Both the position numbers and the translations under genes were made by a program. The notes beneath the pieces are model-generated. The model saw only the letters and a list, made by a program, of their open reading frames with translations, was not told where the DNA came from and did no database searches. This document shows, piece by piece, positions 1 to 42,962 of a DNA stretch of 64,000 nt. Position 1 is the first letter of the stretch. Each line of letters starts with the position of its first letter. Location: contig OZ076414.1 in NCBI GenBank assembly GCA_964187785.1, positions 30,628,001 to 30,692,000 on the forward strand, in the 5' to 3' direction. This stretch comes from Amphiscolops sp. MND2022. Lineage: Eukaryota.

Positions 1-449
1 GTTTCCGCATAATGGTGCATAATTATTAATCACAAACAGCATGATGAAGTGTATTCATTTTCACATTTTCGTACTGTGACGCATACTCATTGATTTAATA
101 GGTCTACGTTTAGATTAATCATTGCTTCCATTCAGAAATATTGGCCTAAATTCAACTAAACAATTCAATATCTCAATCAATAATTAAGGTGAAAAGTTAA
201 GAAAACCTGGTCAACATGTCTTAATTCGCATCTGGCTTCCACAATTCAATCAAAGAAACTATAAAATAAATATTTACATGACTTAACTCGTTGGTTAGGG
301 TAACCAACGAGACAATAAAAGCGAAGAAATAAAAAGGGGGAAAGGCAGTTTATCGAGTTTCATCAAATTGAGTTTGTCTTCCAGGCTGCTTCTTCGTTTT
401 CCTTTTTACTCTTGCAGAACATGCCCAGAGCACCCATGAGGCTGTGACA
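1..449 (-). repeat. 3' LTR (partial; remainder lies outside the window)
   Basis: 2-449 aligns to 14619-15067 with about 12 substitutions and 1 indel (~97%, counted by eye). The element strand starts TGTCACAGCC and is preceded by purine-rich AAAGGTGCGGGAC (putative polypurine tract, ~450-462). Confidence 0.9.
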
Positions 450-1428
450 GTCCCGCACCTTTAAAGGAGAACAGTGCAGCCTCGAATCCATCTATAAAGG
501 CACGGGATCTGACACCTCTGTCCCTGACCGTCTCCCCGTCATAAACGGTTGCAATTAGGTACTCTCCCAGCGTCTCGAGTGCTATCAAATCGTAGCATTT
601 ACCACACCAATCGCAAAATCCAGCGACGTTTGGCATTACTGGGGGCAGAAGTCGATATTGCAGTCTTTCTTGGAAGGGCAAGAGCAGTAGATTCGTGCTA
701 TGTCCCGCTTGGAACGGGAAGTGAGGAGAGGGTCCAGCATTAGGTCCAGTAATCAATTGTGAAACATGGGCGCTTCCTTCATGGGGAGGTATCTGGATCA
801 TTATTGGTGCATTACTATATATAGGCAAAACATTAGGGTTAGCGGAGAAGGCTCCACTGTTGCCCAATGTCCTTGGTTGGGTACCGTTGACAGGGTGATC
901 TGCTTGGTGGTATCTAGGGTCAGTGATTTGTTGGGGTTGATAAATTGGGTAAGTATTTGCAAAATTAGGCGGGTAAGTAGGAATGGGTCTATTGATCACT
1001 GTCGTCTCGTGGTTGTTGCTTCTTGGTGTGGGAAGGATTGCCGCGGCTGGCCTCCCGTAGCTGTTTACAGGTCGTGTCGAAGGTTCAGCCGACTCCCAGG
1101 GCGACATGGGTGAGTCTTCCAGCTCCGTATCAATAAATGAAGTTGATGAAGACCCTCTACTGAATTGATGCTCCTCTATGATTTCCATCATCTGCCGCTC
1201 AATTTGTGTCCCAGCAGTGTCAATTGTCTCAGCAATTGAGGGGTCTTCTGGTCCAGATGTGAAAAGGGTTGCCGAAGTTGCACCCACGAATGCCGTCAAC
1301 ATATCCGATCTTGGTCCACCAACCCTGAATCTTTCCTCCACGTCGGACAGATCATTCGGATGAACGACAAATTCTTCTCCTGAATCGCTTGATATATCTA
1401 CAATCCCAGGAGATTGAATCGAGAGCAA
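406..1428 (-). CDS. Second accessory ORF (340 codons, sense to gag-pol), P/S/T-rich with a C-terminal CxxCxxC-containing domain, ending inside the 3' LTR; true start uncertain
   Basis: Uninterrupted 1,023-nt frame with C-terminal FCDWCGKCYDLIALETLGEYL...RAFIDGFEAALFSF. The stop at 406-408 lies 44 nt into the LTR. The track start is TTG; possible frameshifted upstream pieces extend to an ATG at 1803. Confidence 0.55.
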   Translation of the reverse strand: MLSIQSPGIVDISSDSGEEFVVHPNDLSDVEERFRVGGPRSDMLTAFVGATSATLFTSGPEDPSIAETIDTAGTQIERQMMEIIEEHQFSRGSSSTSFIDTELEDSPMSPWESAEPSTRPVNSYGRPAAAILPTPRSNNHETTVINRPIPTYPPNFANTYPIYQPQQITDPRYHQADHPVNGTQPRTLGNSGAFSANPNVLPIYSNAPIMIQIPPHEGSAHVSQLITGPNAGPSPHFPFQAGHSTNLLLLPFQERLQYRLLPPVMPNVAGFCDWCGKCYDLIALETLGEYLIATVYDGETVRDRGVRSRAFIDGFEAALFSFKGAGLSQPHGCSGHVLQE

Positions 1429-2294
1429 AGGGCTATCTTCAAGGGTAAATTGCAGGTTATTCGTGTTCTCTTCTTATGTTGCAGGATGATTTCCTCAAGT
1501 AAGGTTTAAAGGTAGTTTTCGTTTTAGTTGGAGTTACTGCTTTTGGGCGAGTTAAAAGACCATATGGTGATTGTCTTTTTCGTTTCTTTCGCTTATAACA
1601 AAACCCCGCGGAAAAACTGAGTGTCATGATTTCGGGGTTCTTCGTTTTCCTTATAGGGTCTTTTCTGTGATAGAACTTGATGAATCCGCAAAAATTATCA
1701 AGTTTCCTTTTAATTCGATATAAACATCTTCCATTTTAGGTGTTTCTCCATCTTTCAGGATGAATCTCGTCTTCACCCAAGACGCTTGACGGTGTTGAAC
1801 CATTTTAATGAGATATAAAAAAATCATAACTAAACTAACTTCAAAGGATTTCATGACTAATAACTTCCATTGATGGAGAAATGAAGTGAAAATTGATATA
1901 CATATCTAGATTTACATGACTGAGGTTTACATTTATGAATGGAGTTTTTCAGGACTGAGAGTTTAAATTTTGTGAAATATCACATTTATCCATAGTTCAT
2001 CAAAGTTTTGTTTCGAGTCCCGCACTTGAAGAGTGCGTTATTTCTCAAAAGGTAAAAGCGCATCAAGTCTAGTTTATCTTTCATTTTCTTTCGGTTTGCC
2101 CGAGCTGGCATGCATAAAAACGTATTCTGTTAATAGATCATCATTCTCGCATATTCTATAGCTAGTGTTAACTACTGAACATCACAGCATCGTAAAAAAT
2201 TGGGGTTAGATCGTGTATGTCCTTTAAAACATGCAGACATAGCTTTCAGCGCGGGATTGGTTATCTGTACAATGCCACACATGCTGTTGCAATT

Positions 2295-2505
2295 ATCCGC
2301 ATGCTGCCGTATGTGTAGTGGTGATTTTCCGTATACTACCGCATATGCAGTTGTGGATTTCCGCATACTGCCGCATGTGTAGTGGCTGCTTTCAGTATTC
2401 TGACGCATATGCAGTTGCAAATTTCCGCATACTGTCGCTTTATTGATAAAGTCGTTTTCGCATACTGCCGCACAGGCAGTGGTGAAATTCCTCTCCAAGC
2501 CGCAT
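2295..2505 (+). repeat. Degenerate tandem array A, ~33-nt unit (TTCCGCATACTGCCGCATRTGYAGTK...)
   Basis: About 6 units, e.g. TTCCGCATACTGCCGCATGTGTAGTGG, TTCCGTATACTACCGCATATGCAGTTG, TTCGCATACTGCCGCACAGGCAGTGG. Confidence 0.85.
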
Positions 2506-4172
2506 GAGGGCCATTCATGAGATTCGCATCATTGACCGGTCGCTAGTTTTGATAATTACGTAATCGTCCATTCTGGCAGTAATGGACGGTAAATAATTGA
2601 CCAATCAGATTAGAGTTTTTTCTATATTAGTGCGCAAATTTCAGCATTCATTTGCTCTTTGCCTTTCGTTTTACGCCACGCCTTTATTGTTGTGTTCTAT
2701 CTTATCGTTTCATTGAACATATTTTCATTCAGTTTTTAGAAACTTGCACAAGTCTGGGTTATAGTCATTTCAATTTTGAGTAGTTTTTCATCCTTTTCGT
2801 CGTCACTTCCCTGCAGTTCCTTTTCATTCCGCCATCAAATTTAACCATTCTTGTATTATTTGTCTTCTGGGTTTTCACAATATTGCCATGGATTCTCCCG
2901 GACAAAAGAAATCACGAGAACAATTAATTCCGAGGAAACAAACGGCCAGCTGGGGATACAAATCACCTTCTGGTACTACACCTGGTAAGTCCAACTCAAT
3001 GTTTAGTTCAAATAAAGGTTTTTTAAGGTTTCTTCTTGATCAGAGAAGTTTTATTTCCAGTTAGCTGGCCAGGCTAACTGTAAACGTGATCTATCTTCTC
3101 AGTTTCGATCACAATCAAAATTTTTGAAGCAGAGGCTTCCGGTTTATTTTCAATCACTTCCGCATTTCTTTTATTTCCCGTCACCGCGTCCGGTGTTGGT
3201 CAATTTTCAACGGAAGTTATTGAACTGAATTCATATTCGAGGTTTATTTTAACTATAAACCAGTTTGTTTCAGTCGAACTCGGTTCTTCACAGATATCTC
3301 CTGCTCGGTCCCCAACTAGGACTTACATTCCTCTCCAAGCCTCGTCACCCCAAGTCGGAACCTCCACTGCATTTACTCCACCTACCGCCAGTTCCCCTGT
3401 TAAGTTCGATGAAGGGATTGAACGGGTGATAATTGACCAGCATAACGTTTCTTCGTCACCTGGACAACTGGTGATACTTGATTCTGATGAACTTTCCAAG
3501 GAGAAAGAACTTGATGATGAAGATGATCCATCGGTGTGTGAGGTCACCCCCCTCATTCCTAACTTGTCTTTAGAAGGGATTCGAGACGCTACCATCAACA
3601 ATCTCTCGACTGATTCTCTTGTACCTGCAGTCGCAGCGACTACTTCCCCAAGATTTAGTTCGTTTCTATTACGACCTGAAGAGATATCTTCCCGGGCTGA
3701 AACTCTCGAGATGGTTACACCCGGTGTTCCCATGGAAGTCACCGAGACTTCCGATCCGCCCATGACTGCAGCGACTCAAGAAGATCCTCCCGGAGGCCCT
3801 TCTTCCATAACTCAAAATTTGGTCATAACCCGTCAGGAAGTCTTCGCTCTTACCAGCGTCTTGGGACGTTTACCCCAGTCAATGATTGGTCAACCCGGGC
3901 CCAGTAGTTCTGGTGACATTACTCTTAACATTGTTGAAGATCCACCACAGTCCCCTACCAGGAATTTAATTCAGCAGCCTAGGGACCAAGAAATCATCCA
4001 AGAGTCGGAAAGACCCAAAGGATGTTCGAGTTGTGAAGAAACCCAAGTGACAAGGGGCAAACGCCAGAGGCCTAAATATTCTTTAAAACCACACATGTTA
4101 CGCAAACATCCGGTATTGAAGTTCTTTGCAACCGGGCCTATGGAACGATCCAAGACACCATACAAGTGGTGG

Positions 4173-4253
4173 TGCCGGGTATGCCGTGTGGAACTGTCTT
4201 TGATGAGCCGTGGAGTACTTGAGGTGCTTTCTCACTTCAAAACGGATGCACAT
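4173..4253 (+). other. C-x2-C-x16-H-x5-H zinc finger motif in the accessory protein
   Basis: WCRVCRVELSLMSRGVLEVLSHFKTDAH. The spacing matches the N-terminal (BED-related) fingers I know from hAT-type transposases; this assignment is from pattern recall, not a search. Confidence 0.7.
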
Positions 4254-5737
4254 TTAGTCAAAGAACATCGAATTTGACTCGAGACCCCTGGATTGCCACT
4301 CTTCGATCGATCTGAGAAAGAATTAGTCGGTAGTGCTCTCAAGGAATTGCAAAAGAGATGTACCCAATACCTCCGCAATTGGACGTATGCCGACTATTGG
4401 TGGGACAGGACAAGTTACCAGATTTCATTGATGCAGCCAACCCCAGTGAAGATGTCCTCTCCTAAATTCGGATTCTCGAACAAGGGTTGCGACATGGAGG
4501 CCATGTGGACAGTTTGGTCGGGATGTGGGACGAGATGGTACGCCTCTTTCCCGGCAATTCCCAAGCCTCAACTTACAGTTGGAGTAGACACCGGTTATTT
4601 GTAAGTAGTTTTATTTTTTGGGCCGTACTGAATTTGTTTTCATAAAGTTGTCCATTTTTTGTTCTTTGTAGGCTATTCTGGTTTTCATGTACCGAGAACT
4701 GTTGAGCTATAGCACTTCTTCCATCACTGCATCTGAGACATACTCTCTTTCATTCCAGTGCAGTCAGTTCAAAACGCACATCTTCCTCAATTTCTGGTCG
4801 GGAAATGTGTTTTATCAAATCTGTTTGGGAGCTGGGCCTCGAGGAACTTTAATCCCCAAACGAATGATGGGAACTATTGCAGCTTTCTTGGGGTTATTTG
4901 ATTCACCCCCATCTTGTGTCTGTTTGGTGGACTGCCCCGAGAAACTCTGTACTTGTCTCAAAACTTCATTGCCCGGGAAACTTAAGTCTGCTAGTGTTAA
5001 TGGGTTCAATCAAGCCCAGTTGGAGCGATGTCTATCCATTCCCACATCACGAATACTCGAGAGACACGATTATCGCACCATTCTCGACTTTCTTTTGATG
5101 AAGCTACGAACTGCTTTAGACCGAGATTGGTTACAATCGCTCCCAACCTTGCACAAGGTTCATAAAAGTTTATCTGCTGTTCAAAACTTGCAAGTTGCTT
5201 GGTGGTTTTTAATGTTTTATCTTGCTTTCAGTGTGTTCTTGACCTTGCCTATACCTCTCAGGAGGCTGCAATTCTAATTGAGATGCTGTCCGTCCATTGG
5301 GACAAAGTTCTGGACCACCTCAATCGAGTATCTCGACTGCCTTCGTACCGCTTCCACATGCGAGAAGTATTATACAACATATGGTATTTCTTGACTTTCT
5401 TTAATATAATAATGCCAAATTTGAAATTGTCTTTCAGCCCAGCACTTTGGATGAGTGCTTTCGCCTCGACACGGCTTACTTAGCACGTCTCTTCATCATT
5501 CGCTGTGTGTTGGATCACTGTTAGTGTAACTTTTTACCTTATCTTGCTAAAGAAGTTCTCTTTACTCCGAATTTTGTGGATATTTCCTTTACTGAAAAAG
5601 TAACGTTCTTTTTCAACTTTTCCACAATTCGCGTCTTCAGTATTGTGTTTTCAACTCCACGTGCGATTCTATGTCAATTCTTCTCTATACATTTGCTTCT
5701 TTTGTTAAATGAACCAGCACTCGACAAAACATTAATA

Positions 5738-6080
5738 TTTCCGCATTGTGGCGCATATTCATCAGCGTAATCTTCGCATGGTGTTGTATAATTGGAAATC
5801 GCAATCCGCAATGTGATGTAGGTTCGTTAATTGGAAACCGCATGTTCGATCACATCCATTAGTTAAAGCAGTGTAAGCTTGTACATTCACTGATTGTAAT
5901 CCGCACAGTGACGCGTAGTTATTGGCCGAAAACCGCATACTAACGCATAGTCACTTATTGTAATCCGCATAATAGTGCATAAGCGTTTGTTGAAAACCGC
6001 GTAGTGACGTATAGTCACCGGCTGAACTCCGCAGTATAACGTATAAACATTTGCTGAAAACTGTATAGTGACGCATAACT
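5738..6080 (+). repeat. Degenerate tandem array B, ~32-33-nt unit (CCGCATAnTGACGCATA...), inside intron 4 of the antisense gene
   Basis: About 9-10 units, e.g. AAACCGCATACTAACGCATAG, AATCCGCATAATAGTGCATAA, AAACCGCGTAGTGACGTATAG. Confidence 0.85.
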
Positions 6081-7480
6081 CCTTTAATGCTTGGTAATCA
6101 ATACCTGAAGGTGCTTTATAGTTATCGCAACTATTCTCTGGTCAAATTCGTGTTGATTTGTTTAATAATCCTCGTGTTTCAGACAATTCCGCATTCGCAG
6201 AAGTCCGTGATCAGTTCGGATCTGGGTTCAGGCTGTATAATCAATATGCAGTCTTTGTGTACAGCCAGCTTCAAAATATACTCCCTGACAGTTATTTGGG
6301 CGACATATCCAATTGGGAGAAGTATCTTTCCATCGACTTGAATCAACCGGACCTGCCTTACAAGACTGCTGATGAATTCGTTCTAAATTCAGATTTTCAT
6401 CGTTTGGTGACCACCAGCAAACTCCCGAGACCTAGTAAATTCGTGGAACAAACGATTTCATTTTGTAAATCGTTCTGCAGCATTTTACTCTCCCACGAAA
6501 TTATCAAGTCTGATCTGATTCGAGGGTTGGCCTGTTTTGATTCCGCGGTGATCCTCCATGGGAGCGAAGGGCAATACTTGACAGCGGTTGAATGCCTCAC
6601 TACCCATTTCGTCAGTCTTGGATGGGTGAGCTCGAGTGAGAAAACTAGAGCCATTAGCCAATATCGTTCCCTTGTTTCTAAGTTTCGCGAATCGAATGTT
6701 GGTCAAAAGGATGATTGGTTCCAATTTCTGGTGTCTCATTACGAGCTACAGTGTCGTCCCGAATTACATCAGTTGTTTAAACTTTCCAGTTTGTGCTTGC
6801 CTCCTCTGATCCAGATTCCACCCAGTTTTAAAAATCCAATTCCTGAGTTGGGGAATGATGAGGAAGCCTTTAGTTCATGTGTTGAAAGTATCCAGATTTC
6901 ATTTAGCACTGTTCCTAACGTCTCTAGTCTTTACCAGGATCCTCGTTCAGTTCCTAGAGTGTTCCGATTATTGGGAAGGGGGAAAGAGCTTCTTGCTGAT
7001 CGCAAGTTTTCCATCTGGAACATCTTGAAAGGAAGTGGACCCAAGAGAGCTTCACTATTCGCCAAGTTTGACAATGCTTATAAGAAGGCGGTTGTTGCGC
7101 CCGAAGTTCCAATTCTGGTCGATGATGGAGATGTTACTTGTGGAAGTGGCAATACTACCAGCACTAGTTCTCCTTCTCCTAATTCGAATTTGGGACGCGC
7201 TACAATTGCCTTGGCTCGGTGTGTCGGGGAAGGTGCCAGTACTTCTAAGGTGAAAGCTAAAGTCTCCAAGGGCAAAAAGGACTAGATCAAACTTTTCGGG
7301 TGTTCAATTTGAGTTTGTTTGTCTTTGTTTTTATAGTTTATATGTTATTTGTGTGTATTTATCCGTTCCACCAGTTGTTGGTGTACTTATTATTCAGATT
7401 TGAGAGTAGTATACTCCAAAAAAGGAAACTGCTAACGGGTTTATACCGTTGAAAAGAGATGATTTCCTGTCTGTGTTTTT

Positions 7481-10400
7481 CTAGTATCTGTATGAGTCGG
7501 AGTAGTTTGGGTTGGGATTAGGTCGTAAAATGTATTTTTCACCACGAGTATTTATGGGTTCTTCTTGCAATGGGGTATTTTCGGAGTTTTCTGGGGTTTT
7601 TTGGGTTTGCGTTTCTGGCGTATTTTTTTTGGGATTTTTTGGGAGATTTCTGATTCTTCATCTTGGATTTCTTGTAGGTTTTCATCACAATTTTCTTCTT
7701 CGCGTTCAGTGGTCTGTTCCACTGGGCTCCCCCACTATTTTTTGGAAATTTGGGGGAGGGAGGGTGGTTATTTTCAGGTACTTCAACAGGTACATATTCA
7801 ATATCATCAGTAATTTGTGTATAATCTGGAGGGCTTTCCTCAAATGGGTTAGGCCCAAAATTTGTGTTCCATGATTAGGCATATAGGTCATCATGTGTCA
7901 CTGGCATTTGATCATCTTTTTGCCAATCAGATTCTCGTACGAAAATATCGGCTAACGGTGCTTGCGGTGTGAATTTTCTCAATCTGATTCTATGTAAGAA
8001 TTGTGTTTTATTTGTTCCCAGTCTCCTAACTATATAATTGTTATTAGGAAGGACTTTTTCGACTTTGTAAGGACCCTGCCATCTGAATTGCCGAAATGGT
8101 ATTTTTGTTGCTTGTGTGTCAGCTTTCGGGTTTAAAATGTAGCAGTAGTCCGTTGTTTCTAACGGTGATGCTTTTGCTTTTCTGTCATAATAGGCTTTGT
8201 ATTTGAAATAGGATTGCATTATGTTCTTTTTGGTCTGGTCCAAAAGTATTCTCATTCGTCGTTGTATTTCTTCTGCAACGTCAGTTTGGGGTTGGTATTT
8301 CGGATTAGGATTGTATCCTAACTTGTAATCCAGTATGTTGTGCGGGATGCGGCCATGAAAAACTCGTGAAGGCTCGCAACCAAGCGATGCATGATAGGTT
8401 GTGTTGTGGTTTAGTACTGCTAACGGGAGGAATTTATGCCAGTTATGTCGGAATTCTCGAGTTGCTGCTTTGAGTTGGGTTTTGACTGAAGCATGTGTTC
8501 TTTCCAGAAGTCCTATTGTTTGAGCATGTTTTAGCTCAACACCAAGGACAGCTGTAACTTCATGGGTTACTTGAGCATTGAATTGTGTGCCAAGATCTGT
8601 GATGATTGTTGTTGGAAGGTATGTATGTTTGCATAATATGTCCATTATCACTCTGGCTACTGATGTTGCAGTGATGCGGGTCACTGGATATGCAAACAGG
8701 TATCGAGAGAAAACATCGATCGCTGTTATTATATGGTCATATCCACCGCTGGGTGGTAGATTTGGTAGAATGTCCATTTGAAGAATGTCTTCAGGGCCGA
8801 GATCCGATTCTGGGCAATTAAGTAGTTCGGTCCTGAGGAGGTCATTATTGATCCTTTTGGTTTGTATGCAGGTTTGACAATTACTCACCCATTTTTTAAT
8901 GTATTTTGCAATACAAGGGTAGTAGTATTTCTGCCTTACTTCTTGTATCATCTTTGTGATACCCGGATGGTTTGAGTTGTGACCGTGTAAGGCTTGAAGC
9001 AGTTCTTCTAGGAGTTGTGTTGGTAACAAAATCTGATAGTGCGAGGTGGTTCCTGTGTCTGTGTAGTACCTTCTCGTTAGAACCTTTTGCTTGATTTCGA
9101 TTCTGGTTATGTTTTGGAGGTAATGCTGATATCTGTAATCGGATGCCAAGTCGTTTTCAACAAAGGGGTTTCCTTTTATTTTAGCTCTGAGGTTCCTAAG
9201 GACAATGTCATTGTTTTGTTCGAGTCTGATTCTGGCATTGTCTCGGAAATGCCCTTCAGAGCATGTGTTTAAGCCTGATGTCGGTTTGTGAAATTGTTGA
9301 AGTTCAGTAACATTGTTTTCTGGGTCATTGTGAGTCTCAGTTTGAGCTTGATTTCTCACGTTTTGCTTTTCTTCCCAAAGTTTGTTTTCGTCAAATTCAT
9401 CGTCGGGAAGGATGAAGATTTGTTCTTCTTCCACAATACCAGAAGATTGTATATTGACTTCTATCGCTTTGGTTTGAATATCGTTTCTTATGCTCATTTC
9501 AAGTTTTTTAACTGGGTTGACTTCCGTTCTGGATAGGAAATCCGCTGCCGTATTCATTGAACCAGCAACATGGGCAATGACAAAATTGTTTTGTAGGACA
9601 TAATCGCATGCGTTCCAAAGTGCTGGAGGAATGAGTTTTGCTTGAAAAAAGCGGGTTACAGATCTGTTGTCGGTGAACACTATGACTGGGAAAGTGCTTC
9701 CCCACATGAGGTGACCGAATTCAACAAAAGCAAAGTATATGGAAAGGAATTCTTTCGCATAGATCGACAATTTGGTTTGTGTTGGGTTAAAGGTTTTCGA
9801 ACCAAATGCTATAGGTGCATATGTTGGCGTTTGGACTGGAGTTTTTGGCTGGGATCGTCTTCCATAATGATAGCATATCCTGCTGCTGTAAAGCTTGCAT
9901 CAGACATGACTATGAGTTGTTTGTCTTTGAGAGGTTGTCTCAAAGCTAATTGGCAAGAATTTTCGAGAAGTTTGTTTAGGTTGGTGAAGTCTTCCACCAA
10001 GTTCGTGGGTATATAGAATTTGGAGGTTTCTTTGAGGAGTTTGAAAAATGGGGAGATACGTTCAGAGAGTCTCGGGATTTAATTGCGGTAATAGTTTAGA
10101 AATCCTATGTACCTTTGGAGTGCTTTTTTGGATTTGGGGAATCTCAATTTCGACAAAAAATCTTTGACTTTGTCGGCTTGAGGGGCCACGCCATCAGGTG
10201 TGATTGTGCGGCCTAGAAAGTCTACTTGTTTGACTCCGAAATGACATTTGGACATTGTGAGTTTTAGACCAGCTTTTCGGATACATTCAAAGACCGTCCT
10301 GATGTTAGCGCATAACTGTTTTAAGTCATGTCATCGACGTACTGTGCACATTGGTCAGCCTTGATCGCTTTGTCGAGGTACTCCCTCATGAAGCTAGAAA

Positions 10401-12326
10401 AGGCCGAGAGGGATCTGCTAAGGCCTTGAGCGAGTCGGCGATAAGCGAAAATTCAACTTGCAAAGTTGAAGGCAAGCATCTGAATAGATTGGTAGTCTGC
10501 CATTTGAAGGCAGTGGTAAGCTTGGGAGCAGTCTAATTTGCAGAAAAGTTTTTTGCCTGCCATGTGTTGTGCTGCATCCGACAGCGTGCTTACCGGGTGG
10601 TTATTGTTGATGTAGTCTTCAGTGATTAAATTGTTGATTTTCCTGAGATCACAAGTAGTCTGAGGCGTCCGTTTGGTTTGGGTTGTGCAAAGATTGGACT
10701 AGCGTATTTTGAAAAAGGTAGGGTTGTTATGATTCCATATTTGTGTAGAAGAGCTAGTTCTACGATAATGTCATCTTTGAGGTTGATTGGTGTTGGCAAA
10801 CTTTGACTGTAGGCTGGTCGATCATCGTTTGGTGTGAGTTTAACCTTGAATTCACGATTGGTGCCAATGTCCAATCGGTGTCTGGCAAAATTATCGTGAA
10901 ATTCAATGAGGATTTCTTCAATTTGTTTCTGTTCTTCTTGGCTGAGCGTTGTGTTAGTCCAGTCGAAATTCGAGAGGAAAGCTTTTCTTGATTTTGCATT
11001 GTCTTGTGGGTTGAGTTGTTCAAGTTCTTTGAGCTCAAGGAGTTCATTGTATATTCGTTGTTGGATTGGGGTATACGTTGTAGGATCCCCTGGTTCTTCT
11101 GGTGTTGGGAACCAATAAGATTCTTGTTCGGGGTTTTGTGAAGGAACTTTCAGCAGTTCATTTATGTAGATCTCGGTTGTTTCCTCATGTTGTATCATGA
11201 ATGACAACATCGCTGGATCTACAGGTTGTATATGTTTGATTTGTTCTGGTGTGAGGATTTTAAAGTCTGCTAGATGGGTGTCACAAACTATTGTATATGG
11301 AAGTTCTGAAAAGTTGATTACTTGGTACCCGATAGCATTATTGTTGACCGTACTAAGTGACGATGTGATGAAAATGCTGTCGTGGCTTTCGAATTGTGGT
11401 GAAGGTGTGACTATTCCTGTTGCATCGTGGTCTAATAGGTGGGGCATTCTGCTTGCTATGGCGAGGGTTTCGGCTGGTTGAAGGGTGTATGTATTTTCAG
11501 CAAACAATGGTGTTGCTTGACGCATAGTTACTTGTGTGTCTGGTTTTAATTGCATTGAGAGGTATGGAAAAGTTAGGATGCCTTGTGTGACATCAAAAAC
11601 TGCATTGTTTCTGCGAAGGAAGCAGAGACCAATGAGTGGGTTTGGTAGGTTTTTCATGATGATGAAGTTTTCTCGTAACATGAAATCAGCCACTTCGAAT
11701 TCAAGTAGTACTGTGCCGATTGGTACTTCTAGTTGACCATTGGCCACCATAATTTGGAAATTTGGCGGTGGGCCAGTATCTTTTATTGCTTCATTTACAA
11801 TTAATTTGATTTTGTTAAGGTCTTGTTCAGAGATTGCACTAGTCAGGGCTCCTGTGTCAATGAGTCCGTCAAGTGTGAGTTTTTCGAAGTCCATTGGCAT
11901 GTAGTACATGTGACGTTTTCGTTTCAGTGTTAGCGAGGTTGACATAGGTAGGTATGACAGGTTGCGTTCCTGGTCAAACTGGATATGGTTTGTGATATCT
12001 TCATCTAAAAGGGGTTGTTTTTGTTCATTGCAAGAGAAAGTACTCGGGTGATGAATTGCTGGTGAATTGTCTGTAGGTACAGGGGAGGTTTGAGTATTGT
12101 CTGAAAAATACTTGTCAGGAGCATCTCTCATGAGTTCATAGTATGGTTCTTGTGGGGGTTCATCGTTGTCGGGTTGATTGTGTGTTTGATGTGTGTAGTC
12201 TGGTTCTGTAGTCAGTTGTTTAAGTTGTATGTTTATTGTATCCACTTGACGCTGCCAGTCGTCTTGTGGTTTTGTAGTTGTCATTTGGGCGTTTTGTTTG
12301 CTAAGGCGTGGCGTTTTTAGTTTAAA
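7481..12326 (-). pseudogene. pol: Gypsy pol polyprotein (aspartic protease, dUTPase-like region, reverse transcriptase, RNase H, integrase), multiply disrupted
   Basis: Protease LIDTGA (DTG at 11850-11858); RT YVDD at 10330-10341; RNase H MSDAS...KEF...TDN; integrase HHCC (HGHNSNHPG...CQTC), D-D-E core (QMDIL, ITDLG, LERTH) and GPY module. Lesions: frameshift ~10650, TGA 10453-10455, short deletion after YVDD, TAA 10079-10081, frameshift ~9830, TAA 7875-7877. The reading frame resumes after 7875 to TAG at 7481. Confidence 0.92.
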
Positions 12327-14008
12327 TCCTTGGAAGAGGATTGGTGAAGTCGTTCTATTTTTGGTTTTATAGGTTTTCTAGCTTGTTTGTAAGCTTCGAT
12401 AACCTTCTTTTGGGCTTCTGTGAGGTTCCACTTCGGTAGTCGGTTGTCCATGTTGGCGCCGAAGTAGCAGTTTTCTTCCTCATGACCTGGTGTATTGCAG
12501 TTTTGGCATTTTTCTGCGTCCGGGTCCTCTTCAAGTTTACGCCGTTTTGCTAGCTTGGGGCAGTCAGCCAACATATGACCCGTCTCCTTGCAGTACCGGC
12601 ATTGGTCATTTTAAAATGTCTTGTTAGGTACTGTTTTTGGAGTCTGAGCTTTAGACTTCTCATTTTGTTTTTTAGTTGGTTTTTCCGCATGTTGTTCTTC
12701 TTTGGTGACGGTCATTTGGGTCTTGACCGAGGTTACGTCTGCTTCCAAACCATTTAGCTCCATCTCCCTCTCGAGATGTTTAACGATCTGGTCGTATGTG
12801 CCGTTCTCGAGATAGGCTTGGTTGATGGATTTTTTAAGGTGGGGGGGCATCTTTGCATAGAGTAGGTTCTCTATCATCTGGTGTGCGTTATCTCCGAAAG
12901 CTTTTTCAGCACTTTCTTGGAGTTCTTCAAGGAAATCCGGTAGTTTTTGGTTTTCGGGATCAAAGAAAAGTCTATTGAATCGGTGCTTTGCTGAGGCATT
13001 GGATTCTGGTTTCACGTATTTTCTGCGAAAGACTTTTAGAATGTCTTCCAGTGTGGTAGATGGCGTTCTTTGTATCTTTTTGAATGTTTTTAATGCCAAA
13101 CCTCTGAGGTGTGCGTGAAAGTGGTTAATTTTCATTTCCTCTGTTAGATTCGGCTGCATGCGAAGTGTTGTATGAAACAGGTCTTCAAAGTATTCAAATT
13201 TCTCGTTTTTCTCGTTTTCTCCCTTGAATGTCAATGTGTTTTTCGGGTGAAAAAGTAATTGTTGGGGGTTTTTATTGGCCAGTTTCTCGATTGCTTGTGC
13301 AATTTGATTAACTGGGTCAAGGGGTTTGTTTGTCAATGTTGACGTTGTTTGATCTGCGTGGGATCCAACTGTATCATTTAAAGACTGAGGATTTTGGGAG
13401 CTTTGTAAATGGAGTTGTCTGTTGGCTCCTGTCACCATGTGATAATCCTCCTCCTCGGAGTCTTCTCCTGATATTATTGTTTCGTCTAGATTCGGTTCAT
13501 TTTGACAAGGTGGTCTAGCAGGATTCCTTAATTCTCTCATATTAGAGGCTCTGAGGGGATGATCATCCTCGTTTTCAATATCTGAGTTTTCTATATTTGA
13601 TGCGTGAACTCCATTAGACCTAATACTTTTGGATCCCGATGGTTGTAACTTGGGGATTCCATTTGGTTCAGATCTAGGGTTTGTTATTGTTGATGTTGTT
13701 TTATTTGTTCTTATTTCTTTCAAAATTGCATCAAACTTGTTCTCCATCTCTTCTCTCATTTTCATTATCCTGTCATTGTTCTTTTGTTCGAAGTTTTCTG
13801 TCCAAACTTGGGTTTCGTTACTGATCTGACAAGGTTCTATCAGACTAGATCTGTTTTCGTTTTCACCTAAAGGTTCCTGAATAGCAGTACTAACATTAGT
13901 TAAAGTTTCATTACCTTGCATTGGCGTTTCTACTTGTGTTTCACTCAATTCTCGCTCAGGTGAAGGTGTTTCATGTCTTCTAGATCTTCTGTTTCTCTTA
14001 TTTCCCAT
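12317..14008 (-). pseudogene. gag: Gypsy gag (capsid-like region plus two CCHC zinc knuckles), one premature stop
   Basis: First ATG at 14008 (MGNKRNRRSRR...). In-frame TAA at 12611-12613, then the same frame continues through CRYCKETGHMLADC and CQNCNTPGHEEENC to TAA at 12317. Confidence 0.88.
12320..12326 (-). other. -1 programmed ribosomal frameshift slippery heptamer (T TTA AAC) at the gag/pol junction
   Basis: Gag ends GAT TTA AAC TAA. The -1 frame from the heptamer reads LKLKTPRLSKQNAQMTTTKPQDD, in frame with the 10626..12284 pol ORF. Confidence 0.8.
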
Positions 14009-14400
14009 TGTTCTCAAGTGGAAAACGTGTTGGTTTGCTGGGGAAGAATTTGAATTCAGCTGAGAATTTCAACAAAGCAAATTGGAAAATGAGACAGCTG
14101 TTGATTATGAGAAACTGCTTTTACAGTGGTTTAGAGTGTAGGTTTTATCAACTGTTTCCAACGAGAGTTATTTCAAAGAATGATTGGGGTCTAAGGTCCT
14201 AAGCACAAGGAAAAAATGGTGGGGATTACACCCGTTTTTATGGGTGTCATGGTCGTCATATTCTATTAAAAGAATTACATCATGTGTCGTAATTCTATTT
14301 ATAACTCTAAATATACATTGCATGACAAGCAGAAACAAGTATTGTACAGCTACGACAAAAACCCTGGAAAACTGCACAATGACGTATATACGGTCTTAAA

Positions 14401-14640
14401 CATCCGCATATCAACGAATAATCACATTGCAATAATGGTATAGCACCGTATGATGAAAAACGCTGAAAACCGCATATTGACGCATAAGCGCCGGCGATTT
14501 TCCGCATAGTGACGTGCAAATATCACCGTGACAACGTATCAGGGAAATTACTGTTTTCCGCATGGTGCCGCATAAGCGGTGGTTAAAATCCGCATATTGC
14601 GGTATATGCGTCAGAAATTTTCCGCATAATGGTGCATAAT
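14401..14640 (+). repeat. Degenerate tandem array C, ~32-nt unit, overlapping the LTR
   Basis: Units such as AAACCGCATATTGACGCATAA, TTTCCGCATAGTGACGTGCAA, TTTCCGCATGGTGCCGCATAA, TTTCCGCATAATGGTGCATAA. The last unit is also present at window positions 2-22 in the other LTR. Confidence 0.85.
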
Positions 14641-15067
14641 TATTAATCACAAACAGCATGATGAAGTGTATTCATTTTCACATTTTCGTACTGTGACGCA
14701 TACTCATTGATTTAAAAGGTCCACGTTTAGATTAATCATTGCTTCCATTCAGAAATTATGGCCTAAAGTCAAATAAACAACTCAATATCTCAATCAATAA
14801 TTAAGGTGAAAAGTTAAGAAAACCTGGTCAACATGTCTTAATTCGCATCTGGCTTCCACAATTCAATCAAAGAAACTATAAAATAAATATTTACATGACT
14901 TAACTCGTTGGTTAGGGTAAACAACGAGACAATAAAAGCGAAGAAATAAAAAAGGGGGGAAGGCAGTTTATCGAGTTTCATCAAATTGAGTTTGTCTTCC
15001 AGGCTGCTTCTTCATTTTCCTTTTTACTCTTGCAGAACAGGCCCAGAGCACCCATGAGGCTGCGACA
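14619..15067 (-). repeat. 5' LTR (segment confirmed by alignment; the true inner boundary lies further left, probably at or below ~14400)
   Basis: Copy of 2-449; element strand starts TGTCGCAGCC. Homology to the left copy stops exactly after ...GACA at 15067. Confidence 0.9.
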
Positions 15068-19300: not shown

Positions 19301-19472
19301 TCTATTTTCATCGTCAATTCCTGCTAGAATTTAGACGTCTTGCCATTTTTCTGTCTGTCATTTTGGCCCCTTTCCCAGTTTTTGTCTCACTCTTCCGCTT
19401 TCTTTGTGTTCGATTCAATTCGACTTGTTATTCATTTTTCAATTTGACCTTTATTTGGCGGGGAACTGAACA

Positions 19473-19953
19473 ATGCTTCGTGGTAACAACGGCACCAGTT
19501 TGGGAACCAGTCAAATCGATCAGCCAATTCACGCCAACAACGACCAAATGGCGATCAATCAGAACTTAAACAACAACAACAACGTTGAAAAAATGCCCTT
19601 GAAAAGCATCACGTCTGCGGAAAATGTTCAAATCTGTCCTTCCAGCACTACCGGAGGTATGAAACCTTTTCCCCCTTTCGCCCAAAAAATGGGACCCGTT
19701 AATAACAATGCCATGTCTCAGCTGCCGATGAACAGTTATGGCTCGCCAAAAATGGGTCACGAGAAGGGATATGGGAGCATGTCAAGCTCCAGGAACAGCA
19801 CAAACTCCGAGAAAAGCTCGGATTCGATCAAACTTTTTGTTGGACAGATCCCCAGAGACTTACAAGAGCATAATTTACGCCCCATATTTGAGGAATTCGG
19901 GGAAATTTTGGAGTTTACCATTCTCAAAGATAAATATACTGGAATGCACAAAG
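19473..19953 (+). CDS. CELF3-6: CELF3-6 (Bruno-like/UNC-75-type) RNA-binding protein, coding exon 1: N-terminal extension and start of RRM1
   Basis: ...[43 protein letters not shown] matches RRM1 of CELF3-6 rather than CELF1/2. Donor AAG|GTAAAT, phase 1. Confidence 0.95.
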
Positions 19954-20770
19954 GTAAATATGTTTTGTTGAACTTGTTATTTTTGAATTTGCAGCAGTCT
20001 TTTAACGAGCTAATTTGACCCTTACTCGACTAATTCGCCGAACTACGTCTATTATTGTTTTCACAATCAGTTATTGTTACCTTGTTTCGAATGATGGTTT
20101 TACCAGCTTAAATTTTGAAACTTGAAGTCAATTTCTTGATTTGATTCACTATTAATCCACAACCAAATTTGGACGGAGATTCTTTTTAATTCTTCAGTTT
20201 TGATGAATGAACTTGATATTAATACGTTTAGATGATCCAATGTACAGCTCAAGTTCAATTCTCTTATGCCAAAAAACACAAAATTTTGATTTTTGAAATA
20301 TTATCCTGAAACGGAACCTTTTTCGAATTTGAACTAGATTCTATTGTTTTGTTTTCTAATGCGTAATTAAAAAATTTATGATGACTGGAAGTTCAACCAA
20401 TTTGGGGCATTTTCCATAACCAACGTCAAAAGTTTTAACCCTGATTTCGGATTTCGCCGATTCAAGGTCATTCTTCAGTAGCCCTGGGTATCTCCTAGAT
20501 GGTTTCTGACATTTTTGCCTGAAATAATTCCTGAAGAAAGTTTCAACAGAAAATGAACATTGGTATTTTGCCTCAGGTAAAAATAAAGAGCATAGCTCGG
20601 AGTTCTAGGCAATAAAATTTTTAAGGTGTTGATTTGTGCCAAACATCACTTGAAAAGCTTTGAGGAAACTCAGGGATACAACAATATATCATGAAAGTTA
20701 CGATAACTGATACGGGGACAAAATGTTTCACAAACCTGTCAAAAATGGTCAGAAAAGTTGTTCTCTTAAC

Positions 20771-26381: not shown

Positions 26382-27764
26382 CAGAGTTGGCAGATTATAA
26401 TCATGTGATTATAATCAACGATTATAATCAACGATTATAATCACGATTACATCAACGTAATAAAATCAAGCTTTGCGATTTTAACATTACAGGCCAATGG
26501 GCTTCGAGAACGTTAACATTTGCAGGTCAATTTTATCGTGTTCGCGGTCAACAGCTTCCTTGGAGCGTTTATTCAGCACTTTTGGATGGGTCCATACGAA
26601 AGAGAGAAACCGTCTCGGCAAAGAAAAGGCTGCAAAACTTGTTTTTTTTTGTGTAAAAATTCTGAACTGATTTGCTCGAAATTTAAGTTTTTGACCATTT
26701 TTTTCTATGTTTCTCATTTAATCTGATTATATTCAACAAGACGCCCGCGGACCAGCGGGATATTTTCCGCCCCAAATCTCTTCGAAAAAGACTACTGGAC
26801 AACCAATTTGTTCCTTGTTGACTCTTTTCAACGTTCCAATCTACGAAGTCTGTCGAAAATTTGACAAAAATTGCATTAAAAAAATTGCATAAAATTGTAT
26901 GAAAATTGGAAAATTTTGGGTTTTTTGTCATTTTCGGTTTCAATTTGATATATTTTTCATTTAGAAAACAGTCATTATCTCTTCGGAAAAGCATACTGGA
27001 CAACGAATTCCTGCCATTCCTGTCACGTTAAGCGTTTTCAACATTCTAATCCACGAAGTCTATCGAAAATTTGACAAAAATTGCATAAAAACGTTAAAAA
27101 TCGAAAAAATTTGGAATTTTTAAATCATTTTTTTGGTAATTTTTCTTTTAAAAAACCGCACTTATCTCTTCAGAATACTATTGGACAACGAATTCGTGCC
27201 TTGTTGAACGTTTTCAACATTCTAATCCACGATGTTTATCGAAAAAATGACAAAAATTGCATTAAAACGTTAAAAGTCGAAAAATTTTGGAATTTTTGTC
27301 TTTTTTGGTAATTTTTCTTTTAAAAAACCGCATTTATCTCTTCAGAATACTATTGGACAACGAATTCGTGCCTTGTTGAACGTTTTCAACATTCTAATCG
27401 ACGATGATTATCGAAAAAATGGCAAAAAATGCATGAAAACGGTGAAAATTGGGAAAGTTTTGAATTTTTGTCATTTTCGGGGTCATTTTTGGGTCATTAT
27501 GGGGTCATTTCCGTCATTCCCAAAAAAGTGCAAAAATCTTTACAAATACATATCGCATGGAACTAAATTTATGTCAGTTGAATTCTGTGAATGTACTTCT
27601 TCATATTACGTAAACAATAATTCTTGGCAAATTTTGTAAAAAAAACCCGTTTGATTTAAATATTTTCCTTTCCCATATGAAATATGGGCGGAAAATAATA
27701 ATCCGTGATTATAATCATGATTATGAATTTGATCGCGATTTGATCCAAAAAATTGCCAACCCTG
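26382..27764. mobile_element. Non-autonomous hAT-type element (1,383 bp) in CELF intron 2
   Basis: TIR CAGAGTTGGCA / TGCCAACCCTG (10/11). 8-bp flanks CTTCCATA / CTTCCAAA (7/8 TSD). Subterminal palindromic GATTATAATC repeats at both ends. Confidence 0.85.
26770..27480. repeat. Internal tandem repeat, about 4 units of ~170-200 nt, inside the hAT-type element
   Basis: Recurring TATCTCTTC...TGGACAACGAATTC...TTTTCAACATTCTAATCCACGA...GACAAAAATTGCAT at ~26776, 26976, 27162 and 27332. Confidence 0.85.
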
Positions 27765-31318: not shown

Positions 31319-31920
31319 TTTTTAGTCGGCGCTTTTCTAGTAAAAAGTGCCCGATTATTACAGTCGCTAGTTTTTTTTTTTCGTCAGACCAAATAGCTCA
31401 CCCTGTATGTACCACTTTTTGTGCATTATGCACTTTTCCCAAAAGTACTCAGTACTTGATTTTGAACGCATCCAAAAGCCTCTAACTTGAAATACAAAAC
31501 CCAGAAGGGTCCTCCCTTTCCAATTTTTTTTGGCACTATGACACTTTCCCCGCCCCTTTTCGGCTTTGTGAGACTTTTTTTCGAATTTTTTTGTCTCCAA
31601 AGGGTCCCCCTTCATTTTTTTGATAAACTGGGTGGATATTGAAAAAGCCCAAAGGCCCCTTTTACATTTTTTCGGCACTATCAGATTGTTCAAAATTCTC
31701 ATTTTTCGTTTTAAAAGTTTTTTAATGTCTTCAAAAAGTCCCTTCAATTTTTTTTGGCAATTTTGCAACAACTGGATTTTCAAAAAGCCCAAAGGGTCCA
31801 CCCTTTTACAATTTTAAAAACTTTGCGCTTTTTGTAGCCTTGGATATAGCGCCGACTTTAGACTTTCCCGTCTTGTTGAGCCCTAAACAGGGCGCTGATT
31901 TACGCCGTTCCCGGCTTGTT
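31319..31920 (+). mobile_element. HINE/Helentron-like element with two tandem 3' ends
   Basis: 5' TTTTTAGTCGGCGCTTTT...AAAAAGTGCCCGAT. AAAGGGTCCCC central repeats. First 3' end GCGCCGACTTTAGACTTTCCCGTCTTGTT (to 31877), second ...GCCGTTCCCGGCTTGTT (to 31920). Confidence 0.75.
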
Positions 31921-40089: not shown

Positions 40090-40567
40090 TATAACGTCTA
40101 AAGTCGGCGCTATATCTAGGGCTCAAAAAGTGAAAATATTTTTTCTTGAAAAAAAATTGAAATTTTTGAAATTTTTTTCTTTCGGAAAATATCGCATAGT
40201 GCCGAAAAATGTAAAAGGGGGGACACTTTGCGATTTATTAACAAACATTCTGTTGCAAAATATCAGAAAATTCGAAGGGGGGACCCTTTGGTGACATTAA
40301 AAAAATTTCGGAAAGTCGCACAGTGCCGAAAAAAAATCGAAAGGGGACCCTTTAGTCTCGTCCGGTTCTGTAGGTTACCTTAATAAAGTAAAAAAATGAA
40401 AGGGGGAAAGTTTTGCACTAAGTTTGCATTGGCCGGACTTGGCCTTATTGGTTTCAGGAGTTTCCCTAAAAGTGGAACAATCAGTGTGAGGTCTGAGGTC
40501 TAAAGAGAAAAAAGGTCACTGTAAGAGTCGGGCATTTTTCCTTAAAAGGAAAAAGCGCCGACTAAAA
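40090..40567 (-). mobile_element. HINE/Helentron-like element
   Basis: AACGTCTAAAGTCGGCGCTATATC (3' end, slightly truncated) to AAAAGCGCCGACTAAAAA (5' end). Same subfamily as 36980-37463, opposite strand. Confidence 0.8.
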
Positions 40568-40872
40568 ATGCTACTGGTAAAAACAGAAACACTCAAGTTT
40601 GAAATAGTCAATTGATTACAGGTTTGGAAAAGTCATAAATGTCTATTGTCAGCATGGCAAGTCCGAAACGGCCCATGTCGACGAGTCTGCTCGATGCTCA
40701 AAAATAGTAAAGTCTTTCCAATTCTAGAGTTGTTCAAAACAATTGCGTAGTGCTGGTTAAATCTGATACGTCATATCCGAATTTCATGCGTTATATCCGA
40801 AATATTGTAAGTTTTATCAGAAAGTGCTATTAGTATGCTACATTTTGAGAAAAATCGGCGATGGCTAGATTT

Positions 40873-41338
40873 AACAAGACGAGAACGTCTAAAGTCGGCG
40901 CTATATCTAAGGCTCAAAAAGCGCAAAACATTTTTTTTATTTGAAAAAAGAAATTTTTTCTTTCGAAAAATGTCGCATAGTGCCGAAAAATGTAAAAAGG
41001 GCGACCTTTTTGAATTTATTCATACATTCTGTTGCAAAATATCAGAAAACTCGAAGGGGGGACCCTTTGGGGACAAAATTTTGGAAAGTCGCACAGTGCC
41101 AAAAATTGAAACGGGGACCCTTTAGTCTCGTCCAGTTTTGTAGGTTACCTTAAAAAAGTGAAAAATGAAGGGGGGGAGACCCTTTGCACTAAGTTTGCTT
41201 TGGCCGAAGTCGGCCTTAGGTGGTTTCAGGAATGTTTTTCAGGAAAAGTGGACCGATCAGTGGGAGGTATGTGGTCTGAAGAAAAGGTTACTGTTAGTCG
41301 GGCATTTTTCCTTAAACGTAAAACGCACCGACTAAAAA
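40873..41338 (-). mobile_element. HINE/Helentron-like element
   Basis: AACAAGACGAGAACGTCTAAAGTCGGCGC (3' end) to AAACGCACCGACTAAAAA (5' end). Close paralog of 40090-40567. Confidence 0.8.
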
Positions 41339-41356
41339 GTGCGTCTCATTTAATTT

Positions 41357-42105
41357 TCTAGTCGGCGCTTTTCTAGAAAAGAGCCGACTATAGTCATGGC
41401 TTTTCGTCAGTGTTTTTTTAAGACCACCTGAACTGACCAAAATAGTTCTACCAAAAGTTCTACAAAATTTTCAGAAAACGCCAAAATGTACCTGTTGGCC
41501 AAAGGAACTGAACCAAAAAGGTTTCCCGCGTAACATACAATACCGGACTATACCAAAGGGTCCCCCTTTAGATTTTTTCGGCACTGTGCGACTTTTTTTC
41601 AAAAAAAAATCCCCCCTTCAATTTTTTTTTGAGTTTTGCAACAAAATGGATGTTGAAAAATCCCAAAGGGTCCTCCCTTTCAGTTTTTTTCCGGCATTGT
41701 GAGACTTTTCAAAAAAAATCCCCACGAAAGGGTCTCCCCTCAATTTTTTTGGAGTTTTGCAACAAAATGGATGTTGAAAAATCCCAAAGGGTCCTCCCTT
41801 TCAGTTTTTTTCAGCATTGTGAGACTTTTCAAAAAAAATCCCCACGAAAGGGTCTCCCCTCAATTTTTTTCTATTTTGCAAATGAATGGATGTTCAAAGA
41901 CTCCCAAAGGGTCCACTTTTACATTTTCGGCACTATGCGACTTACCGGAGACCAAAAAAAAACAAAAAAATGAAAAAAAATTAGGATTTTTTTTCAATTT
42001 TTCCCTCACGCGGGTACTGTAGAAGAGAAAACTTGACACTTTGAAGTTCTTTTGCTATTTTTGAGCTTTGGATATGGCGCCGACTTGGGCCGTTCCCGGC
42101 TTGTT
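41357..42105 (+). mobile_element. HINE/Helentron-like element with expanded ~120-nt central repeat
   Basis: 5' palindrome TAGTCGGCGCTTTTCTAGAAAAGAGCCGACTA (41359-41390). Near-identical 121-nt tandem units at 41631 and 41752. 3' GGCGCCGACTTGGGCCGTTCCCGGCTTGTT. Confidence 0.85.
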
Positions 42106-42438
42106 GACGTTACATTTGGATTCAATCATTCTATATCGCATATAAACGAAAAGGTTTTTTTGTATATTTGTATAGTTCGCTTGAAAAACCTTTAAAAATT
42201 GTTTCTTTGCGGGATTTGAATTCACACCCTCTAGCTTCTTCAGTTAACGCTCTCCTTACTAGATCAGGCTTTGCATCAGAGACTTTGCAGTATTTTTTGT
42301 CTTTCTAAACAAGCCGTGGATTGGCGCCCGCTCAAAGCTTAAAAAGAGCAAAGTCTTGAATTTGACCAAGGCAAACATTAAGAAGCGCTCATCGTCACAC
42401 TACCGAAAATTATTCATTTCGTTTTCACTGCAAGCTTA

Positions 42439-42962
42439 AAACAAGCCGGGAACGGCCCAAGTCGGCGCCATATCTAATGCTCAAAAGTAGCAAAAGAACT
42501 TCAAAGTGTCAAGTTTTCTCTTCTACAGTACCCGCGTGAGGGAAAAATTGAAAAAAAAATCCTAATTTTTTTCATTTTTTTTGTTTTTTTTTGGTCTCCG
42601 GTAAGTCGTATAGTGCTGAAAATGTAAAAGGTGACCCTTTGGGAGTCTTTGAACATCCATTCATTTGCAAAATAGAAAAAAAAATTGAGGGGGGACCCTT
42701 TGGAGACATTAAAAAAATTTCCGAAAAAAGTCTCATAGTGCCGAGAAAACTAAGTTAAAAACACCAAGATAGCCAAAGAGGGGATCCTTAGTATGTTTTC
42801 GAGGTTCTGGACGTCGGTGTTTTGGACGAAGTTCTGACGTAGCCAGTATGTTTTGGACATGCGTAGTTCAGTTGAACAAATGGAAAGAAAGTGGACCTTA
42901 CGCGTATGAAAAACTACCCACTGTGAGAATCGGCACTTTTTCAGAAAAGCGCCGACAAAAAA
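42439..42962 (-). mobile_element. HINE/Helentron-like element, tail-to-tail with 41357-42105
   Basis: AACAAGCCGGGAACGGCCCAAGTCGGCGCC (3' end) to AATCGGCACTTTTTCAGAAAAGCGCCGACAAAA (5' end). Confidence 0.8.

Follow-up and report, generated by a model that had tools for sequence, protein, structure and literature searches.

Phased 32-nt repeat arrays at three non-coding sites of an acoel Ty3/gypsy retrotransposon, with a candidate reader encoded by the element

Background

Elements that encode sequence-specific regulators of their own, together with co-evolving repeat arrays, are already known among plant DNA transposons. In this regard, VANC motifs form dense tandem arrays of one orientation in introns, intergenic and terminal regions, and VANC21 acts on such dense same-orientation motifs (PMC5735166; apart from PMC6451197, papers are cited here from extracts of their text). 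VANC itself has been traced to a MAIN-related protein (PMC13547354), accessory proteins and anti-silencing have been described in plants (PMC13547354, PMC12859917), and transposases have been argued to become regulators by losing catalysis (bioRxiv 10.64898/2026.08.24.746577). For long terminal repeat (LTR) elements with antisense open reading frames (ORFs) and tandem arrays, function is stated as unknown (PMC11963269). Here, we describe a 64,000-nt stretch of the convolutid acoel Amphiscolops sp. MND2022 (assembly GCA_964187785.1, contig OZ076414.1, positions 30,628,001 to 30,692,000; hereafter the window), the first 15 kb of which are one Ty3/gypsy LTR retrotransposon on the minus strand that carries arrays of a 32-nt unit at three sites, as well as an antisense accessory gene whose product is a candidate reader of these arrays.

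The likeness to the VANC/VANDAL system of Arabidopsis lies in an accessory protein of the element, in dense same-orientation motif arrays in introns, including the accessory gene's own, and in further arrays at intergenic and terminal sites; VANDAL arrays also differ between subfamilies (PMC5735166). The carrier here, however, is an animal LTR retrotransposon and not a MULE DNA transposon, the putative binder is transposase-like with a C2H2 finger and has no VANC domain in Pfam, and the acoel host shows no CpG depletion. With the Retand/Tat gypsy elements of plants the locus shares a long region from pol to the 3' LTR, an antisense ORF, there predicted to bind DNA, and family-specific tandem arrays (PMC11963269), whereas no match to TRP28 (PF04195) is present here and the host is an acoel instead of a flowering plant. 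The BED domains of Hermes bind short sites with an AT-rich flank in a phased, multivalent manner, the sites being read by a multimer (PMC10368747). Our element resembles such hAT systems in having a C2H2 finger N-terminal to a helical region with a weak Hermes alignment, and short, exactly phased sites with an AT-rich flank, but it differs in that the catalytic Glu motif is missing and the sites are direct repeats in a retroelement, unlike Hermes' AAGT. Regulators of the Spm TnpA type are transposase-derived, lack catalytic residues and activate cognate copies via repeated motifs, but they act on DNA transposons or are host-domesticated, and the main text of the paper describing them, as extracted, has no match for 'LTR' or 'Gypsy' (bioRxiv 10.64898/2026.08.24.746577). 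As we read it, the present element resembles VANC/VANDAL and TnpA/Spm in how it works and Retand in its construction, and it is a member of none of these, because its carrier is an animal gypsy element with neither a VANC nor a TRP28 match.

No such circuit in an animal LTR element was found in the literature searched, the coverage of which mostly leaves out subscription papers. LTR elements make up about half of the genome of Symsagittifera roscoffensis (PMC9911081) and gypsy elements 28% of that of Praesagittifera naikaiensis (PMC6451197), and a self-activation circuit, if true, could help explain such loads in acoels. With a candidate protein and a candidate site named in a single element, the question of array function becomes directly testable.

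Three arrays of one repeat unit

An earlier note on this DNA had proposed that one motif with the core CCGCAT-N5-CGCAT occurs in one orientation at three sites of the element, and the counts bear this out. With at most two mismatches the pattern has 25 matches in the window against a shuffle mean of 6.4 (maximum 13); 19 of these lie inside the arrays, all on the + strand and including all 12 matches with zero or one mismatch, while the remaining six correspond to the number expected by chance. Gaps of 3, 4 or 6 between the half-sites gave no excess of matches in the window. Additionally, 18 of 30 held-out units (5/8, 5/11 and 8/11 by array) outscored the best of ~98,000 host positions when scored with a matrix built from the other two arrays, and within the 64 kb the full unit with two half-sites is confined to the element. 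The three arrays, located in the spacer between two divergent accessory genes (array A), in an intron of the antisense gene (array B) and at the LTR (array C), comprise 29-30 units in total, all on one strand and all at non-coding sites (Table 1). The motif served to anchor the units by eye, in a register fixed at 32 nt; one unit, at 14340, was dropped after matrix scoring (-25.8), so that later tests used 29 units, and the alignment fold used 24. The extents first given (2295-2505, 5738-6080 and 14401-14640) were real, but every array turned out to be longer, and the period, described before as ~32-33 nt, is indeed about three helical turns but is more sharply 32, being exact in 21 of 26 intervals, with a weak 64-nt dimer pattern besides.

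Table 1. Coordinates of the arrays, the element and the host repeat in the window.
Feature	Position	Strand	Description
Array A	2259..2515	+	8 units of 32 nt; spacer between divergent accessory genes
Array B	5735..6086	+	11 units of 32 nt; intron of antisense gene
Array C	14366..14711	+	10 units of 32 nt, one shortened; doubtful extra unit at 14334
Antisense accessory gene, spliced	2889..7285	+	start codon placed from sequence
Basic stretch resembling a nuclear localisation signal (NLS), and finger	4059..4253	+	C-x2-C-x16-H-x5-H finger at 4173-4253; uninterrupted in the present copy
GT-AG intron holding array B	5520..6182	+	relatives carry both flanking exon peptides, some intronless
Last exon	6183..7285	+	helical domain, weakly hAT-like (insertion and C-terminal part), without catalytic Glu motif
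ORF X, second accessory gene	406..1735	-	Ser/Pro-rich; Cys-containing C-terminus ending inside LTR
gag-pol	7875..14005	-	CCHC knuckle, protease, reverse transcriptase, RNase H, integrase; several frames, broken (Pfam, ORF list)
3' LTR, left part before window	1..449	-	repeat units anchored at 5, 37 and 69
Polypurine-tract-like stretch	450..462	-	10/13 purines on element strand; directly before 3' LTR
TATA-like box	14297..14303	-	~60 nt downstream of array C in element direction (regex scan); putative function
5' LTR, part verified by duplication	14618..15067	-	inner-end candidates 14245 or 14285, read from sequence
Host HINE/DINE-1-like repeat cluster	40093..42751		~120-nt units with a 12-nt core like the first half of the array unit
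Other HINE/DINE-1-like copies	31557-31877, 36981-37464, 59890-60241		scattered sites at 27962, 29850 and 53616

Each unit consists of an A/T tract, CCGCAT, xxTGx, CGCAT and a weaker AxxCA, and the two direct half-sites start 10 nt apart, which agrees with the spacing of about one helical turn proposed before. The bases between them were said to diverge, and they are partly free, but within the N5, T9 (25/30) and G10 (22/30) equal C2 (22/30) or C14 (18/30) of the core in conservation; after the core, C20 and A21 are present in 19/30 units each. G3 (28/30) and G13 (27/30) are nearly invariant, while C4 and C14 are often T, so that the half-site is best written YGYAY. The placement of array C in the LTR is established by duplication from 14618 onward, the last three units being common to both LTRs; the left LTR had been credited with only one of these recurring units. 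The remaining units of array C are assigned to the LTR by inference, from the fact that the window begins within its left copy, and they probably belong to U3, because a TATA-like box follows at 14303-14297 on the element strand. That the arrays stem solely from a nested DNA transposon was ruled out, as units also occur in both LTRs. CCAAT boxes flank array A (2203 and 2260 on the - strand, 2601 on the + strand) and occur in three linkers of array B (5795, 5834 and 5925, - strand), as seen in a scan made without comparison to chance.

Conservation of the units

The units are only ~51% identical to one another, against ~3% divergence of the LTRs, yet the interval has mostly stayed exact. Identity between arrays (0.50) is close to that within arrays (0.54), and the core, which had been expected to be more conserved than the rest, has a between-array identity of 0.65-0.68 against 0.36-0.40 outside it. 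In a held-out test, columns conserved in two arrays were also conserved in the third, with p = 0.014, 0.013 and 0.0015 for strict-phase runs and p = 0.25, 0.004 and 0.0001 for arrays A, B and C when all units were used. Neutral arrays were simulated along randomly drawn duplication trees so as to match the identity seen within and between arrays; of the accepted runs, 4/1041 and 2/969 (6/2010 together) attained the held-out value of the real arrays, all six under the strand-biased, high-transition model. Local duplication took part in the growth of the arrays, since in every array a unit resembles the next but one more closely than its direct neighbour (lag-2 identity 0.71, 0.64 and 0.59 versus lag-1 identity 0.64, 0.56 and 0.51 in A, B and C).

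Taken on the sequence evidence, this points to selected, phased, putative protein-binding sites and away from simple slippage, as the earlier note had suggested. The evidence for selection on array columns is good but not final, because the simulations omit by-eye anchoring and context-dependent mutation. We consider it likely that the arrays are functional binding sites of some kind. That they are instead a neutral relic, namely an ancestral 32-nt minisatellite that was template-switched to three places and amplified by slippage, with its conservation due to mutation bias and unit picking, appears improbable to us. The 64-nt dimer pattern as a sign of local duplication, the preponderance of transitions among core deviations (46/61) and the absence of array B from some relatives would fit such a relic, and a cruder statistic, the spread of conservation across columns, was matched by a three-array neutral model (P 0.03-0.16); tandem arrays are also common in Retand elements, again with function stated as unknown in the extract (PMC11963269). 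A relic does not sit well, however, with a held-out statistic so rarely reached under neutrality, strand-biased models included, with the near-equality of between- and within-array identity and the contrast between core and remainder, or with a period kept despite deep divergence. A methylation-driven story was rejected as well: the observed/expected (o/e) CpG ratio is 0.97 in the host and 1.2 in the LTR, and 2 of 13 LTR substitutions are CpG transitions.

The antisense gene and its relatives

The region from pol to the 3' LTR is occupied by two accessory genes in divergent orientation, the spliced antisense gene on the + strand and ORF X on the - strand. In the present copy the antisense gene is broken twice, by a stop codon in frame at 4275-4277 and by a shift of frame near 4350; the stretch 4059-4274 is uninterrupted. 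Relatives were plentiful, 209 for the last exon (50% cluster level) and 81 for the finger region, from which the family is large and old, judging by sequence comparison. No usable match came from an Atlas search with the last exon, and no full-length relatives of the last exon were found among proteins of 679-2000 aa, which is weak evidence. In one of 150 relatives (P0093), the exon is joined to pol-derived sequence (E 3e-12), which links the antisense gene to gypsy pol outside the present copy.

That array B lies inside an intron of this gene, numbered 4 in the earlier count, is supported by relatives that carry the peptides of both flanking exons. The ORFs of relatives were called without splicing, so that some begin within the intron, and 16 such extensions were tested. 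Seven relatives extend at least 34 codons upstream of the acceptor, and three of these suggest an array in the intron: a complete unit can be fitted to the peptides of P0004 (46% identity) and P0043 (63% identity, over a short segment), 40 and 34 codons before the acceptor, respectively (P = 0.006 and 0.008 when the matrix was built from arrays A and C alone), and in P0005 (82%) the read-through opens on the second half-site at the corresponding position. In the present copy the last unit of array B starts 40.3 codons upstream of the acceptor. The intron is missing in four relatives (P0118, P0141, P0150 and P0137), three of which form a deep, well-supported branch, and by this sequence evidence it was gained or lost within the family. 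When 28 last-exon fragments were placed on a tree, all four motif-positive rows belonged to a single clade of 12 rows (93/88, below the starred level), and the three rows with short introns lay outside it; the clustering of labels does not go beyond that of shuffles (186/500). With units in some relatives and short introns in others, array B looks like a feature of a subfamily.

The earlier note had drawn on the zinc fingers of hAT transposases, and a conserved C2H2 finger and a weakly hAT-like C-terminus are indeed present. The Cys/His ligands of the finger are at least 90% conserved in the 45 of 81 relatives aligned, and its Atlas neighbours (0.93-0.97) include unnamed eukaryotic clusters as well as clusters with zf-C2H2_12 (47% of members) and zf-BED (12%); Pfam gave no zf-BED match for the finger. 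A structure model built from a natural relative matches BED fingers (ZBED2, Z 3.4; ZBED1 and ZBED3 in Foldseek at E >1) in addition to matrin/U1 fingers, and between these two folds the modelled finger is tied. For the model of the last exon (predicted local distance difference test score, pLDDT, 74), the longest alignment is to the Hermes transposase (8edg, chain 239-586; Z 5.0, root-mean-square deviation 6.7, 176 residues). The catalytic Glu of hAT transposases, which we take to sit in an ERxF-like motif after a C-terminal helix, was missing from all 40 relatives that, out of 150 scanned, showed the helix pattern, and the middle exons had no sequence match in PDB. We read the antisense product as a catalytically dead derivative of a hAT transposase, its hAT origin being suggested by the weak structural match.

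Reading of the arrays

By analogy with the plant systems, our tentative answer, for which we would allow somewhat less than an even chance, is that the antisense product of the element itself reads the arrays, in a VANC-like self-regulating circuit built from a dead transposase. The three arrays would then be cis-regulatory modules at the LTR promoter, the divergent accessory promoter and the intron, and the site read would be an A/T tract followed by two half-sites of the YGYAY type at a distance of 10 nt, recurring every 32 nt. The presumed reader, the dead hAT derivative with its BED-like finger, would bind DNA and probably oligomerise, and individually weak contacts between finger and DNA would suffice only where the sites are densely packed; specificity would come from density, as with the BED domains of Hermes and with VANC21. 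The LTR and the gene's own promoter would be activated, or shielded from silencing, by which family copies would be marked and kept transcribed in a positive loop; this loop would act in trans from intact copies, because the present copy is broken. The silencing countered would more likely be chromatin-based or piRNA-guided than DNA methylation, because host CpG is not depleted. A wider evolutionary account, which we regard as unlikely to hold in full, is that a large animal LTR retrotransposon family captured a hAT transposase, lost its catalysis and uses the protein as its own sequence-specific factor for transcription or anti-silencing, with subfamily-specific phased arrays spread by tandem duplication to LTR, accessory promoter and intron. 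A VANC-like arms race would thereby have arisen anew in a class I element, in an animal whose CpG methylation is not marked, and host HINE-like repeats may be read too.

Several results weigh against this proposal. Among the arrays themselves, the held-out test is no longer passed by array A once its full set of 8 units is included (p = 0.25), and the simulations leave by-eye anchoring and context-dependent mutation out of account. Among the relatives, the P values for P0004 and P0043 become ~0.1 after strict correction for 16 tests, four of the seven with long read-through show no unit, and three others have introns of ~21-41 codons, too short for array B. As to the protein, Pfam and PDB sequence searches with all parts of the antisense product gave nothing significant, the finger model scores best against RNA-binding fingers of the matrin/U1 type (TUT4, Z 5.3), and the structural similarity to Hermes is weak, its Z of 5.0 being second to an unrelated 5.2. 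Foldseek gave no match at E <=0.001 for either model, and the candidates re-examined reached Z <=4.0. Demethylation in the style of VANC is an unlikely output, because host CpG o/e is 0.97. Finally, units of a HINE-like host repeat carry CGCAYAGTGCCG, which resembles positions 2-13 of the array unit; this shared 12-nt core weakens exclusivity and keeps a host factor in play.

Such a host factor would read the arrays as selected enhancer or insulator modules, leaving the antisense protein to do something else, for example integration targeting or countering silencing elsewhere; we rate this as possible but rather unlikely. Host-read arrays are known in gypsy elements, e.g. the Su(Hw) insulator, and all of the conservation evidence would fit a host reader equally. 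Further, positions 10-17 read TGACGYA in many units, which we take to resemble a bZIP half-site. The GCM site, proposed earlier as a possible host-factor core, has to be given up: RCCCGCAT, the consensus we adopt as it was then given, occurs 0 times in the arrays and once in pol (1.25 expected), and C precedes the core in 0/30 units. The best host matches to the array unit all fall in one abundant, dispersed non-coding repeat; by eye, three full copies of it show inverted repeats in subterminal position, a hairpin on the 3' side and a central run of ~120-nt units; HINE/DINE-1 elements are described as having subterminal inverted repeats, a 3' stem-loop and central tandem repeats, and no coding capacity (PMC4067079, extract). 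The units of this repeat also carry a GGGACCCTTT box. Of the 19 window matches to CGCAYAGTGMCG, 12 lie outside the element, in the HINE-like repeat or related host sites. The resemblance is significant with a 13-column sub-matrix (P = 0.015), but this was chosen afterwards, and with the full 32-column matrix it is not (P = 0.115). Moreover, the host core has no second half-site and tolerates G to T at G3, where 28/30 array units have G, and a host factor explains less neatly why an array sits in the accessory gene's own intron. The likeness of host and array cores may be due to chance or to a host factor reading both.

An RNA-level signal, in which Gag or a matrin-like finger would bind single-stranded repeats of the genomic or antisense transcript and so serve its export or packaging or control its splicing, is in our view quite improbable. 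All units share one orientation and the finger's best structural matches are the RNA-binding fingers of TUT4, TUT1, SF3A2-type and JAZ/ZFa, and array A on the + strand is more stable than its shuffles (z = -3.6); the other seven of eight single-array folds on both strands, however, have z between -1.5 and +1.6, and a shared RNA hairpin was rejected, with RNAalifold finding 0 consensus pairs in 24 units (+ strand). The periods of 10 and 32 nt fit turns of B-DNA, and array C, upstream of the TATA-like box, would be absent from the 5' end of the transcript. Least probable, and only barely credible to us, is a reader among the other element products, ORF X or integrase. In favour of ORF X are its NLS-like stretch, its Cys-rich C-terminus and its share in the promoter region around array A, but neither family nor fold evidence for DNA binding emerged from the Pfam and PDB sequence searches.

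The carrier element and its surroundings

On the minus strand, Pfam matches follow the order gag, then protease, reverse transcriptase, RNase H and integrase, as is characteristic of Ty3/gypsy. The two LTR copies (1-449 and 14618-15067) differ at 14 of 450 columns (97% identity), from which the insertion is young, though defective. The outer LTR end is TGTC, and the inner end of one copy lies beyond the window. The stretch at 450-462 is a putative polypurine tract, in the place where such a tract conventionally lies. For the primer-binding site, 14000-14620 holds only two TGG candidates, neither of them adjoining a candidate LTR end. Within 14230-14300 no tRNA-type primer site was seen beside either LTR-end candidate, and two short hairpins (~14230-14247 and 14272-14295) take its place, so that priming may be unusual or the LTR may end elsewhere. 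Several AATAAA signals and a TATA-like box are present on the + strand of the LTR, at 14877-14950 and at the corresponding place in its left copy, by which the LTR may also drive or end antisense transcripts; on the element strand, no AATAAA signal was found in 14000-15067. The ORF X region includes an upstream ORF (1457-1735) with a basic NLS-like stretch; ORF X had no family match in Pfam or PDB, and no env features were noticed in it. Neither further copies of the element in the window nor a related locus in a prokaryotic genome collection were found.

The GC content of the flanks is 33-42% per kb, and that of the Symsagittifera roscoffensis genome is given as 36.7% (PMC9911081, extract). 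A host exon of a CELF/Bruno-like protein with an RRM lies at 19470-20018 (+), its closest named protein being from Convolutriloba macropyga (54% over 91% of the query), and a separate tandem repeat of 172-190 nt, unrelated to the 32-nt arrays, occupies 26776-27490.

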